This document shows, piece after piece, positions 18,830-45,150 of a stretch of 64,000 nt of DNA (positions within the stretch are counted from its first letter, which is position 1; every line of letters starts with the position of its first letter). A model generated the notes under the pieces. It was not told the DNA's origin, made no database searches, and saw nothing but the letters and a program-made list of their open reading frames with translations. Position numbers and translations under genes: made by a program. The stretch is from NCBI GenBank assembly GCA_028534125.1, contig CM052816.1, forward strand, positions 34,660,001-34,724,000. The letters are read 5' to 3'. The stretch is from Lama glama (Eukaryota).

Positions 18830-19700
18830 ACATATGCAATCAGATTTCAATGAGAAAAGAAAGTAGACTTTTGCTGTGAGTAATCTGTGATGCTTTCAGA
18901 GAGGCAGTAGCCTCTGAACCAGAATTTGTTGGATTTAAATAGTGATGGAAGAGAAAGAGGAGGGCTTTCCATATGAAAGGGGGAAAATGGAGAAAAACAT
19001 AGGGCAGAAATGCAAAATCATGTTTGGAGAAAAATAAGATAAATAACTTGGCTTGAACCTGAGTATTGTGTGGAGAAGTTACATGATTTGAGACTGAAAA
19101 AATAACTTGGGTCAACAGGGTAGAGGGACAAGAATGACAAATAATTCCCTTCCTTCATCAGGGCCTTTGTACTTGCTATTCTCTCTCCTTAGAATGCTCT
19201 CCCCAGATATCCAGATGATCAGGTCCTGCTCATTATTCATGTCTTCAGTCAAAGTCATTTCTTCCAAAAGGTCTACTTTGACCAACTTTTTAAAGCAATT
19301 CCCTCTTTACCCAGCAACTCACTCTCTACCTATTACTACATTTCATTTCCTTCACAGCACTAAATTACCTTGTTCGTTTGCTTACTTGTTTACTGCCTAT
19401 CTTCTCACTAGAAGGCAAAAGCCATGAAAGCAGGGATCTTTTCTATCTTGCTCACTGCTGAATCCCCAGTGCTGTGCAAGTGCATGGCACTTACCAGGTT
19501 CTCAGTAAGTATTTGCTCAATGAATGATTGTATGAGTTGTTCTTTAGTCAGTGGATAATGAGGAACCATACAATTTTTGAGTAAAGAGATGAATCCCAGT
19601 GGTATTCAAAAGAAGTTAATTTGACAGCAGACAGCAGATTTTAGGATGGAATGAGGCAGTATGAGATTTAAGGGCAGGGAGATCAATTAGGAGGCTATTT
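18830..19700. mobile_element. L2 fragments (nested, both orientations), left of the L1
   Basis: L2 3' motif GCAGGGATCTTTTCTATCTTGCTCACTGCTGAATCCCCAGTGC...CTCAGTAAGTATTTGCTCAATGAATGA, and purine-rich antisense L2 ending in AATTAGGAGGCTATT. Confidence 0.75.
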
Positions 19701-20550
19701 ATTTTATTTTATTTTAACTGGACCAGTCATTCTTTTTTTAATTGAGTAATAGTCATTTTACAATGTTGTGTCAAATTCTAGTGTAGAGCACAATTTTTCA
19801 GTTATATATGAATATATGTATATTCATTGTCACATTTTTTTTTTGCTATGAGTTACCACAAGATCTTGTATATATTTCCCTGTGCTATACAGTATAGTCT
19901 TGTTTACCTATTCTGCATTTTAAAATACCAGTCTGTCCTTTCCCACCCTCTGCCCACTTGGCAACCACAAGTTTGTATTCTATGTCTATGAGTCTGTTTC
20001 TGTTTTGTATTTATGTTTGGGTTTTTTTGTTGTTTGTTTTTTTTAGATTCCACATATGAGTGATCTCATATGGTATTTTTCTTTCTCTTTCTGGCTTACT
20101 CACTTAGAGTGACATTCTCCAGGAACATCGATGTTGCTGCAAATGGCATTGTTGTCGGTCTCTGTGGCTGAATAGTATTCCATTGTATAAATATATCACA
20201 GCTTCTTTATTCAGTCATCTGTTGATGGACATTTATGCTGTTTCCATGTCTTGGCTATTGTAAATAGTGTTGCTATGAACATTGGGGTTCAGGTGCCATT
20301 TTGAAGTAGGATTTCTTCTGGATATATGCCCAGGAGCGGGATTTCTGGGTCCTATGGTAAGTCTACTCCTAGTCTTTTGAGGAATCTCCATACTGTTTTC
20401 CACAGTGGCTTTCCTTGCTTCCCTCTCCCACTCTTAATGATTTAGTTGTCTTCTTTTACAATTTTGTGGGGTTTTTTTAGTTATTCATGGCAATTATCTC
20501 CTTTCCAGTTATGAGTTTCTCATTTTTGTAGCATCCTGCTTCTTTTCTAC

Positions 20551-21442
20551 TTAGAGTAGACCTGTCAATATTTCTTTTAGCATGGGTTTAGTGTTGCTAA
20601 ACTCTTTTAGTTTTTGCTTGTCTGTGAAGTTCTTTATCTCTCCTATTCTGAAGGATAGCCTTGCTGGATAGAGTATCCTAGGCTGCATCTTTTTTTCATT
20701 CAAGACTTTGAATATATCTTGCCACTCCCTTCTGGCCTGTAGTGTTTGTGTAGAGAAATCAGCTGGGAGCCTTATGGGGGTTCCATTGTAACTCACTCTT
20801 TGATTTTCTCTTGCTGCCTTTAGGATCATTTCTTTATCCTTGACTCTGGCCATCTTGATTATGATATGTCTTGGTGTGGGTCTGCTTGGGTTCTTCTTGT
20901 TTGGTACCCTCTGAGTCTCCAGTACTTGGATATCTGATTCCTTCTTTAGGTATGGGAAGTTTTCAGTCATGATTTCTTCAAATATCTTTTCAATCCACTT
21001 TGTTCTGTCTTCCCCTTCTGGAACCCCTATTATGCATAGATTGGCACACTTTATATTATCCCATAGGTCCCTTATGTTGTTTTCATTGTTTTTTATTTGT
21101 TTTTTCTCTCAGCTCTTCTAATTGGGTGCTTTCTGTTGTCCTGTCTTCTAGGTCACTTAGTCGTTCCTCTGCATTATCTAGCCTGCTTTGTACAGCCTTT
21201 AGATCAGCTCTCATCTCAGCAAATGAGTTTACTAATTCTACTTGGTTCTTCTTTATAGCTTGTATTTCATTTTTGACATATTTTGTATCTCTAAACACTA
21301 TTTCTTTTAGTTCCTTCAGTACTTCAATCACTCCTTTATTGAAATCTTGATCTAGTAGGCCATCAATGTCTATTTCCTTGATCGTGCTTTCAGGGGATTT
21401 CTCTTGATCTTTTAATTGGGAGTGGTTCCTCTGCTTCTTCAT
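20551..21442 (-). pseudogene. L1 ORF1p (coiled coil + RRM + CTD), frameshifted
   Basis: The ORF-track pieces 21083..21442 (MKKQRNHSQLK...RLDNAEERLSDLEDR) and 20551..20970 (ENFP...RPTPRHIIIKM...LQARREW...PRILYPARLSF) carry hallmark ORF1p motifs. The frame breaks between them near an A-rich run. Confidence 0.95.
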
Positions 21443-21445
21443 ATT

Positions 21446-21545
21446 NNNNNNNNNNNNNNNNNNNNNNNNNNNNNNNNNNNNNNNNNNNNNNNNNNNNNNN
21501 NNNNNNNNNNNNNNNNNNNNNNNNNNNNNNNNNNNNNNNNNNNNN
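21446..21545. other. Assembly gap (100 N) between the L1 5'UTR and ORF1
   Basis: Run of 100 n characters; true length unknown. Confidence 1.
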
Positions 21546-22710
21546 CTGCTCCCAGTGGCTGTCAGCTAGCAGATCACTCCCCCTCCTAACACTGGATCAG
21601 GAGCTGAGCTCTTACCCGGTGGGCGGACGGGTCACTCCCCCTCCCAATGCCGCTGTCAGATGCTGCACTGGGAGAGGGGAGGCAGGTTGGTGGATCGCAC
21701 CCCCTCCCAGCACCATGGGCAGATGCTGCGTTCCTGCCAGGAAGGGGGTTGGCCTCCCACCCTCTCCCAGCACTGGTCACTCTGCTGCTCTGTGCAGCTG
21801 CCCACTCCGCCTCCGGTCGGTGCTCCAAAGGCAGGCTCAGGGAAGACCGCAGAACAGCCCTGCGCCTGCTCCATGCCAGATCTCAGCTCCTTGTTTGTGT
21901 TGGCAGCGCGAGTTCTCTGAGGTGTCAGGGCAGAAAGATCCTATCTGCCTCGGGCTGTGAACAAGTCTCAGTCCTGCCTAGGAGGGTGCGGAGTCCCCGG
22001 TGCGGATTCCTGATTCTCAGCCCCGCCTCCGTCTGGGTGCTGTGCCCAGGAGAATATGGTGGCTGTGGCTGCGCCCTACCTCTCTTCTCAGGAGAAGCAC
22101 CAGTAATGGCGACACAGGTCTGGGGAGACAAATGCTATGGCACCCCTCCCCCCAGGGCACACTAGCCATGTTGCTTTGCTTTTTTCACAATTTATGGGGG
22201 ACTGAGGTTGTTCTGCTCCATATCCCCTCCCAGCCATGGCGTGTAGCACCCTGCAGTCCCCTGGGGCTGCCTCAGTGCAGCTGCCCCAGTCCTCCGCCTG
22301 GCTTGGGCGGCCTGTCCCGGCCCCAGCTGCCGGCTCGTGCCTTGGGCCGGGTGTTGTGGGGACCCTTTGTGCCCATTTAACTTAGTTCTGTAGGTCAAGG
22401 GATGTTCGGGGCAGATCTGAGCCTCGGAGGCTTCCCCTCCATCCCACTGGCCTCTCCTTTGAAGAGGAGAGACCTAGCGAATGAGCGCCTGTCCTCCTTT
22501 GCCGCTCCCTCCCCTTGGGACCAGTCCTGCACTGTTTTGCTTTTTCTTCTTTCTTTTTCCCTTTTATCCTACCAGATTTTTGGCATCTTTGTCTTTCGAA
22601 GAGGGCGATGTTCTGTCAGAGTTCGGCAGGTGCTCTGGTTGGCTGAGTAGGTCTGTAGATGTGAGTTTTGGTGTATTTGTGGGAGAGGGTGAGCTACAAG
22701 CATCCTTCTA

Positions 22711-22727
22711 CTCCACCATCTTGCTTC
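22711..22727 (-). promoter_or_regulatory. L1 5' terminus with YY1-like site (CAAGATGGtGG)
   Basis: Minus strand reads GAAGCAAGATGGTGGAG, directly adjoining the TSD. This matches the CAAGATGGCGG motif at mammalian L1 5' ends with one CpG decay. Confidence 0.7.
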
Positions 22728-23275
22728 TTAGGAGGCTATTTTAATAGTCAAAAGGGATAAGATCCTGAACTCTGGCAGTGGCAGTGGGATAGGTGAAAGA
22801 ATTGTGAAGATCAAAGGCATGTTACTTGAGGACTGATTAGATATGAGAGGTGGGGGACAGCTGGGAATTAAAGGAATGCCTTACTTAGAAAGAGGGAAAA
22901 GGACCTAGTTTGGGCAGAGTTCAAATTGAAGCATCCTGAGCTTTAAGTGACACAACATTTGGAAATGAAATATGAAATCATGTAGGCCATGTGTGCCCTT
23001 GCCTGTAAAGACGAGCTAGAAGAGGAAATAAAGATTTGGGAGTTAACAGCTTAGAAGTGATAGTTGACCCCTTGGTAGTGAATAAGGTCTCTGAGGAAAG
23101 GTATAGAAAGAAAAGTGCAGAGGGCTGAGAATAGCAGTGTGGAGAGCAGCTGTATTCCAAGGATGAAAGAAAGGGAAGGAGATGCAGGAAATGGGGTGGG
23201 AGAGGGGAGAAATTCAAGAAGGAAAAAGTGAATTGGAATGAGAGTATGTCAAGGTGATCACAGGATGCCAGAATA
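22728..23275 (-). mobile_element. L2, continuation of the element split by the L1
   Basis: Resumes at TTAGGAGGCTATT and continues with antisense L2 sequence (CCTGAACTCTGGCAGTGGCAGTGGGA, AAAGATTTGGGAGTTAACAGC). Confidence 0.7.
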
Positions 23276-24533: not shown

Positions 24534-24690
24534 CTAAGTGTCCATCAACAGATGAATGGATAAAGAAGTTATGGTATATATACAATGGAATACTACTGAG
24601 CCATAAAAATGAAATTTCATCATTTGTAACAACATGGATGGATTTGGAGGGTATTAGGCTAAGTGAAATAAGTCAGAGAAAGAAAAAAAA
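24534..24690 (+). mobile_element. L1 fragment (ORF2 C-terminus only, no 3'UTR)
   Basis: AAGTGTCCATCAACAGATGAATGGATAAAG encodes KCPSTDEWIK. The fragment ends in an A run. TSD core TTAGGAAG at 24526-24533 and 24692-24699. Confidence 0.88.
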
Positions 24691-38772: not shown

Positions 38773-38977
38773 GATTTCAAAATTGTAGAATAGATAAAAA
38801 AGATTAGACTGTATAGCACAGGGAAATATACACAAAATCTTATGGTAGCTCACAGAGAAAAAAATGTGACTATGAATATATATATGTTCATGTATGACTG
38901 AAAAATTGTGCTGAACACTGGAATTTGACACAACATTGTAAAATGATTATAAATCAACAAAAAATGTTTAAAAAGAA
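38773..38977 (+). mobile_element. 5'-truncated L1 3'UTR copy inserted in a MIR
   Basis: Homologous to the 3'UTR of the L1 at 19.7-19.9 kb (ACTGTATAGCACAGGGAAATATA...AATTTGACACAACATTGTAAA). 14-bp TSD TAATAACACCTACT at 38759-38772 and 38978-38991. Confidence 0.92.
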
Positions 38978-44092: not shown

Positions 44093-44646
44093 CTTTTTTT
44101 AAATTGATGTACAGTTGACATACAACATTATATTAGTTTCAAGTGTACAATATAATGATTACATGTATGTGTATATATATATATAGCTGAATGATCACCA
44201 CAATAAGTTTAGTTACCATCCATCACCATATAAAATTACAAAAAAATGTTTTTCTTGAGATGAGAACTTTTATGATTTACTCTCTTAGCAACTTACAAAT
44301 ATGCAATGCAGTATTATTGACTATAGTCAACAGGCTGTACCTTACATCCTCGTGATTTATTTATTTTATAACTGGAAGTTTGTACCTCTTAACCCCCTTG
44401 ACCTATTTTGCCTACTCTCCAGCCACCACAACCCCAGTCCCCTGACAACCACCATCCTGTTTTCTCTGAGTTTTGTTTTGTTTGTTCATTTGTTTTGTTT
44501 TTTACATCTCACGTGTAAGTGAGATCATGTGATGTTTGTCTTTGTCTGACTTGTTTCACTTAGCATAATACCCTCGAGGTGCATTCATGTTGTTGTAAAT
44601 GACAAGATTTCATTCTCTTTTGCAGCTGAGTAATATTCCATTATAC

Positions 44647-44684
<38 letters not shown>

Positions 44685-45150
44685 CTGTGCATGTGTGTGT
44701 GTGTGTTTATCTGTGTGTGTGTGTGTGTATATATATCATATCTTATTTACCCATTCATCCACTTACTGATATTTAGGTTGTTTTCATATCTTGACTTTTA
44801 TAAATAATGCTGCATTGAACATAGGGTTGCATATATCTTTTTGAATTAGTGTTTTCATTTTCTTTGGATAAATACCCAGAAGTGGGAAATGCTGAATTAT
44901 ATGGTAGTTCACTTTTTAATCTTTTGAGGAAACTTCATATTGTTTTCCACAGTAGCTGCAGCAATTTGCATTCCCACTAATAGTATACAAGGGTTCCCTT
45001 TTCTCCACATCCTTGACAACACTTGCCTGTTGTCTTTTTTGATAATAGCCATTCTGACAGACGTGAGGTGATATCTCATGTGATTTTGATTTAACATTTT
45101 CCTTATTATAGTGATGTTGACCAACTTTTCATGAGCCAATTGGCTATTTG
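44093..45150 (-). mobile_element. 5'-truncated L1 (L1MA/L1MB-like ORF2 end + 3'UTR)
   Basis: ORF 44909..45139 contains the ORF2 motif MRYHLTSVRMAIIKK. Typical 3'UTR and T-run at 44094-44100. Degenerate TSD ACCTAAT on both sides. Confidence 0.9.
44650..44728. repeat. Compound (TG)n microsatellite inside L1
   Basis: Long TG run with TATC/CA interruptions. Confidence 0.95.

Follow-up and report, generated by a model that had tools for sequence, protein, structure and literature searches.

A decayed L1 copy in the llama genome that retains promoter and ORF1 and has lost nearly all of ORF2

Anatomy of the element and hallmarks of its insertion

In this work, we describe an L1 retrotransposon copy that reads on the minus strand at positions 19687..22741 of a 64,000-nt stretch of Lama glama DNA (CM052816.1, 34,660,001-34,724,000). 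This whole stretch is referred to as the window, and all positions are counted within it. The element is a genuine, old and decayed L1 copy, which carries the promoter and the first open reading frame (ORF1) and from which nearly all of the second (ORF2) is gone. Along the minus strand, its parts follow one another as L1 5' end, 5' untranslated region (5'UTR), a 100-N assembly gap, ORF1, inter-ORF spacer, deletion junction, ORF2 C-terminus, 3'UTR and tail, all enclosed by one pair of 14-bp target-site duplications (TSDs). The 14-mer occurs exactly twice in the 64-kb window, at 19687 and 22728, with 14 of 14 positions identical, and the pre-insertion site on the element strand is the L1 endonuclease consensus (as given in PMC5860796). 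The endonuclease-type site, the TSD pair and the A-rich tail, which are hallmarks of insertion by the L1 machinery, are all present and, together with the intact 5' end, bound a 3.0-kb unit. Twin priming was ruled out, as every part lies on one strand. An initial annotation, made from the letters of the window, had placed the same parts, with about 140 nt of spacer and an ORF2 end starting at PLWKTVW, inside a single TSD pair, and this anatomy was borne out (the spacer measures 142 nt). Its reading of the element as a half-L1 inserted by the L1 machinery fits this anatomy. ORF1 is not intact. The coordinates of all parts are collected in Table 1.

Table 1. Parts of the element in 5' to 3' order along the minus strand, with positions in the window
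Feature	Position	Strand	Evidence or remarks
TSD, 5' copy	22728..22741	-	exact 14-mer match; site TT/AAAATAG
L1 5' terminus and 5'UTR, running into the gap	21546..22727	-	1182 nt; GC 0.59; CpG observed/expected 0.35
Assembly gap, nominally 100 N	21446..21545	.	between 5'UTR and ORF1
ORF1, ~297 codons, coiled coil, RRM and CTD	20551..21442	-	Pfam domains, alignments
Inter-ORF spacer, first 142 nt, ending ...GCAAGGAAAG	20409..20550	-	alignment to L005-L009 and L001
Deletion junction; AG at 20410-20409 assignable to spacer or ORF2 side	20408..20410	-	alignment
ORF2 C-terminal remnant, PLWKTVW to ORF2 stop, ~120 codons	20043..20408	-	4 premature stops, 2 frameshifts
L1 3'UTR with ATTAAA at 19742-19737 and first A run	19733..20042	-	85% identity to second copy at 38774-38964
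Tail: 17 extra bases (19716-19732), then (AAAAT)3	19701..19732	-	absent from second 3'UTR copy
TSD, 3' copy	19687..19700	-	exact 14-mer match

The segment missing from the element comprises the rest of the spacer, the ORF2 start, the endonuclease and reverse transcriptase domains, and the zinc knuckle. The absence of the two enzymatic domains, already claimed in the initial annotation, was confirmed by the 50 proteins found in the ORF1 search: several of them contain reverse transcriptase or endonuclease domains, and they match the element only in ORF1 and the 5'UTR. Related mammalian L1 loci, all of them non-camelid, were found by an ORF1-guided scan (11 among 330 metagenome-contig candidates), and one of these, locus L001, matches the element solely via ORF1, even though about 2.9 kb of ORF2 are present in it. 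The CX3CX7HX4C zinc knuckle is also missing; in the dromedary protein P0057, named L1 ORF2, it lies directly upstream of SLVQ-PLWKTVW. The relatives with long spacers represent two independent loci, namely L001, with a spacer of 504 nt, and L005-L009, with a spacer of 390 nt, the latter being near-identical and taken as one locus seen five times. The 142-nt spacer of the element aligns to the start of the L005-L009 spacer with a score reached by 0-2 of 500 shuffles, whereas the score against L001 was reached by 36 of 500 shuffles and is not significant. Judging from the alignment to these long-spacer relatives, some 240-280 nt of spacer were lost. Since a full ORF2 has about 1,270 residues, and part of the spacer is missing as well, the total loss is estimated at about 3.7 kb.

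The retained front of the element is recognizable in all its parts. The CpG observed/expected ratio of the 5'UTR (0.35) stands against 0.06-0.08 in the flanks, and 29 nt at 22666-22694 match the 5' end of L005-L009. The assembly gap hides part of the 5'UTR, of which at least 1182 nt are present, and it may also hide an N-terminal extension of ORF1, as the protein P0009 has residues ahead of the homologous methionine. In ORF1, the Pfam domains Transposase_22 and Tnp_22_dsRBD were both detected. Over its 892 nt, ORF1 is free of premature stops; a +1 frameshift lies near 21105 and an in-frame deletion of 3 nt near 20644. The divergence is about 10% at the amino-acid level, which would correspond to roughly 5% at the DNA level. 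Because ORF1 is frameshifted and diverged to this extent, the copy is old and dead.

The highest identities were found with dromedary proteins, both for ORF1 (P0040, 79% over 78 residues) and for the ORF2 remnant (P0057, 78%), and therefore all parts of the element come from a camelid L1 lineage. P0040 belongs to a public dromedary gene model called 'cylicin-1', the last third of which is pieced together from ORF1 and antisense 5'UTR sequence of L1. The antisense pieces match the 5'UTR of the element, and this model is probably a mis-annotation. Three further L1 fragments lie in the window. At 38774-38964 on the plus strand, a 5'-truncated L1 3' end of about 190 nt and of the same lineage has its own 13-14 bp TSD. 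An older 5'-truncated L1 at 44100-45130 on the minus strand contains the ORF2 end and the 3'UTR, is about 70% identical to the element and is broken by (TG)n at 44650-44728. A short, old fragment of an L1 ORF2 end, 74% identical to the element, is located at 24535-24690 on the plus strand. With regard to host genes, 109 stop-to-stop frames of at least 72 residues outside the element gave no Pfam match above the curated cut-off.

The tail has an unusual structure, in which ATTAAA is followed by seven A, 17 bases, (AAAAT)3 and the TSD, so that the final A-rich run begins 21 nt past ATTAAA. The 17 bases between the two A-rich runs include an 11-nt near-palindrome, and they have no counterpart in the other 3'UTR copy, at 38774-38964. 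Together with (AAAAT)3, they possibly represent a short 3' transduction followed by a decayed poly(A) tail. Such a tail would fit a transcript of a genomic source element that ran on for 17 nt into the flanking DNA, although it is silent on whether that source had ORF2. As a tag, the 17 nt could identify the source locus.

The deletion junction and the question of splicing

The junction at 20409/20408 adjoins the PLWKTVW motif and occurs once in the 64-kb window. Its position and flanking letters, as first annotated, were found to be correct on re-reading, and the older L1 (here at 44.7-45.0 kb) does have GCAG ahead of the homologous point. The initial annotation concluded that the breakpoint sits right after a CAG, where a splice acceptor would place it. 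The position is indeed compatible with an acceptor; however, the alignment to the older L1 continues two bases past the breakpoint, to the left and through the AG, and the breakpoint is for this reason ambiguous by up to 2 nt. The AG may therefore be plain ORF2 sequence or microhomology. On the acceptor side, dromedary ORF2 reads SLVQ-PLWKTVW, and the older L1 has CAG at this place. Among the 150 matches examined (the best 150 of 10122), the PLW motif was found in 135, and in 124 of these it follows a glutamine; the camelid glutamine codon could be CAA or CAG. On the donor side, the retained sequence ends in AAG, and exon ends are commonly AAG. Among the relatives, a donor-like motif lies upstream of where the junction falls in the ungapped alignment: GGAG/GTAAAT by two bases in L001 and GGAA/GTAAGA by ten bases in L005-L009.

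How often such features arise by chance was estimated by simulating random spacer-to-ORF2 deletions on three relatives. A 3' side compatible with an acceptor was obtained in 12.5-12.7% of the simulated deletions, and GT and AG occurred jointly in just 0.1-0.3% of them, which makes the donor the decisive half of a splice test. It is on this side, and in the context of the acceptor, that the case for splicing meets its difficulties. In neither non-camelid relative does a GT coincide with the junction; L005-L009 continue with AT at the ungapped junction position, and their strong donor aligns to bases that are retained in the element, where they read GC. The acceptor context is poor in pyrimidines (37% over the 19 nt leading up to the acceptor in the older L1), and microhomology of at least 2 nt, such as the shared AG, was present in 23-27% of the simulated deletions. 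The splice-like reading of the initial annotation is thus compatible with the 3' side of the junction, although the AG is common to both sides and the GT of the non-camelid relatives lies 2 or 10 nt upstream rather than at the junction itself. Taken together, these sequence comparisons leave splicing as a tentative origin of the junction, with somewhat less than an even chance.

The spacers of L001 and of L005-L009 both contain a strong donor-like GT about 140-220 nt past the ORF1 stop. The long-spacer L1 lineage may be prone to splicing ORF2 out from the spacer.

Origin of the copy and the search for a family

We lean, without firm conviction, towards the reading that an ORF2-less camelid L1 RNA was inserted here by ORF2p acting in trans, in a HAL1-like manner. 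We infer that ORF2 was lost before insertion. According to this proposal, a camelid L1 RNA consisting of the 5'UTR promoter, ORF1, part of the spacer, the ORF2 tail, the 3'UTR and poly(A) would have been copied over its whole length as it was inserted by target-primed reverse transcription, with ORF2p provided in trans by another, intact L1 and with ORF1p probably provided in cis by the RNA itself. The template could have been the transcript of a full-length L1 in which splicing joined a spacer donor to the CAG ahead of PLWKTVW, or it could have come from a genomic half-L1 source element. After insertion, the copy would have decayed into its present, dead form.

The distribution of damage along the element bears on this proposal. 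One frame-breaking change was found in ORF1 (892 nt) as compared with six in the examined part of the ORF2 remnant (334 nt; nominal P 0.002-0.006 for this split). A retained promoter and ORF1, with six of the seven frame breaks in the remnant, is what would be expected if the source element had been selected for an open ORF1. Several observations speak against such a history. The asymmetry of stops and frameshifts was spotted only after the fact and gives weak support. Private amino-acid changes are distributed evenly, with 6 of 58 in ORF1 and 9 of 66 in the ORF2 remnant (Fisher P 0.78), and at columns conserved at 90% or more ORF1 is hit worse than the remnant (3 of 50 versus 0 of 24). At columns with 80% conservation, changes number 4 of 80 in ORF1 and 7 of 54 in the remnant. 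The amino-acid counts therefore do not support a prolonged existence as an ORF1-only lineage under selection. Moreover, the junction was not found again in any of the collections searched, which contain no camelid genomic DNA.

A different explanation, which we regard as a serious possibility although we would not expect it to be true, is a single deletion event at 0-2 nt of microhomology (the AG common to both sides), involving neither splicing nor a family. A full-length L1 could have inserted in cis and then lost about 3.7 kb in the chromosome, or the reverse transcriptase could have skipped the middle of the RNA at insertion. Such an event would account for the AG on both sides of the alignment, given how frequently microhomology of this length arises by chance (0.23-0.27), as well as for the weak acceptor and for relatives that lack GT exactly at the junction. 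The similar amino-acid divergence of ORF1 and the ORF2 remnant points the same way, and the age of the copy, with about 10% amino-acid change, leaves time for a later loss. In addition, L1 proteins favour their own RNA, and insertion in cis is therefore the commoner route (PMC5860796). However, only 12.5% of random deletions would have landed at an acceptor-compatible position. A one-off loss would also have had to spare the whole promoter, ORF1 and the 3' end, which is the layout repeatedly selected in HAL1 elements, and the frame-breaking changes are clustered in the ORF2 remnant. An assembly misjoin, in which the front of one L1 was fused over a collapsed repeat to the back of a second L1, or to its own back, is very improbable: the 100-N gap inside the element does mean that the region was assembled from short pieces, but the junction is located inside a contig at a distance of 1 kb from the gap, its sides share at most 2 nt, which is too little for an overlap-driven join, and the exact TSD on both flanks binds the two contigs to one insertion.

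Further copies of the junction were looked for in sequence collections that contain no camelid genomic DNA. An exact 22-mer from the spacer had no matches in metagenome, genome and viral contigs. Scans guided by ORF1 yielded one 260-nt fragment among 149 genome candidates and none among 33 candidates in viral contigs, and an ORF2-guided scan of viral contigs yielded none among five. A junction 16-mer matched 16 viral loci, all rejected as chance matches, since their alignments to the element were 45 nt long at most. Plasmid records gave one low-complexity match of 65 nt, and phage records gave none. At the protein level, the sense-frame junction peptide produced five candidates, none of which scored, and an HMMER library search with the junction peptide returned no protein with spacer-derived residues before PLW among the best 150 of 10122 matches; these blanks are uninformative, because there is no start codon ahead of the junction in the sense frame. 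With the antisense-frame junction peptide, all 13 matches covered at most 74% of the query, on the ORF2 side only. Of 23 sequencing runs, from several organisms, 20 contain words of the stretch, with a highest share of 0.63; orthologous copies and other family members contribute alike to such a share, and it was given no weight.

In the literature searched, no description of a camelid HAL1 was found, Repbase and Dfam being outside its scope, so that a curated entry may exist. The main text of a Camelus transposable-element survey (PMC8605555) contains no occurrence of 'HAL1', and in the available text of PMC6726744 the sole mention of HAL1 is a bat HAL1 match.

Under the favoured reading, the junction would probably recur at other loci. 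It appears unlikely, by comparison, that the element belongs to a camelid-specific multi-copy ORF1-only family which arose from one splicing event, with a donor in the spacer and an acceptor just past the zinc knuckle. As a lone deleted L1, the element would be of minor importance. Should the junction prove to be present at many loci, it would define an apparently undescribed camelid half-L1 family and a further independent origin of ORF1-only L1 parasites. If, in addition, the lost segment were bounded by GT...AG, the splicing of L1 RNA would be joined to the birth of HAL1 elements, offering a mechanism for their repeated origin.

Comparison with known systems

Half-L1s of this kind are already known in other mammals as HAL1 elements, for which the primary paper is said to be that of Bao and Jurka in 2010. 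HAL1 elements encode ORF1p only and arose several times in mammals (PMC5753468), and in the rat their copy number is about 7500 (PMC2241872). As described for HAL1 elements including rat RNHAL1 (PMC5753468, PMC2241872, PMC4859970, PMC13756887), the common features are an L1 promoter and ORF1, no functional ORF2, an L1 3' end and the hallmarks of the L1 machinery. These structural features are found in the llama element as well: the L1 5'UTR is present together with ORF1, the latter with one frameshift, and the endonuclease and reverse transcriptase of ORF2 are absent. Like HAL1, the element would depend on ORF2p from elsewhere if it were mobile in its present form. Unlike the multi-copy HAL1 families, it was seen as a single copy across the window and the collections described above, and it retains a recognizable ORF2 tail of 120 codons. 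It also belongs to the camelid L1 lineage, with 78-79% identity to dromedary L1 proteins, and would thus have an origin independent of the known HAL1s.

Another point of comparison is provided by the SpIREs (spliced integrated retrotransposed elements) that Larson et al. (2018, PMC5860796) described for human L1, which likewise have an internal deletion, a 3' end of the deletion compatible with AG, and intact TSDs. As reported there, SpIREs arise by splicing with both sites inside the 5'UTR or with a 5'UTR donor and an acceptor in ORF1; their ORF2 is retained, their promoter is gone, and each is a dead end. In the llama element, the junction is located in the inter-ORF spacer and the 5'UTR is kept. 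Unlike SpIREs, an element that keeps promoter and ORF1 and loses ORF2 could be transcribed and move again, even though the donor in the present case is putative. A splice-born family, if true, would mean that a spliced L1 integrant is not necessarily a dead end and that ordinary splicing, because this particular splice retains promoter and ORF1, is able to found a HAL1 family. A further parallel is offered by SpORF2 transcripts (Belancio et al. 2010, PMC2896524), in which L1 RNA is likewise cut down to one reading frame. They are the mirror image of the llama element, as they drop ORF1 and keep ORF2, and for them splicing was demonstrated in the RNA itself, the splice sites having been sequenced (PMC2896524).

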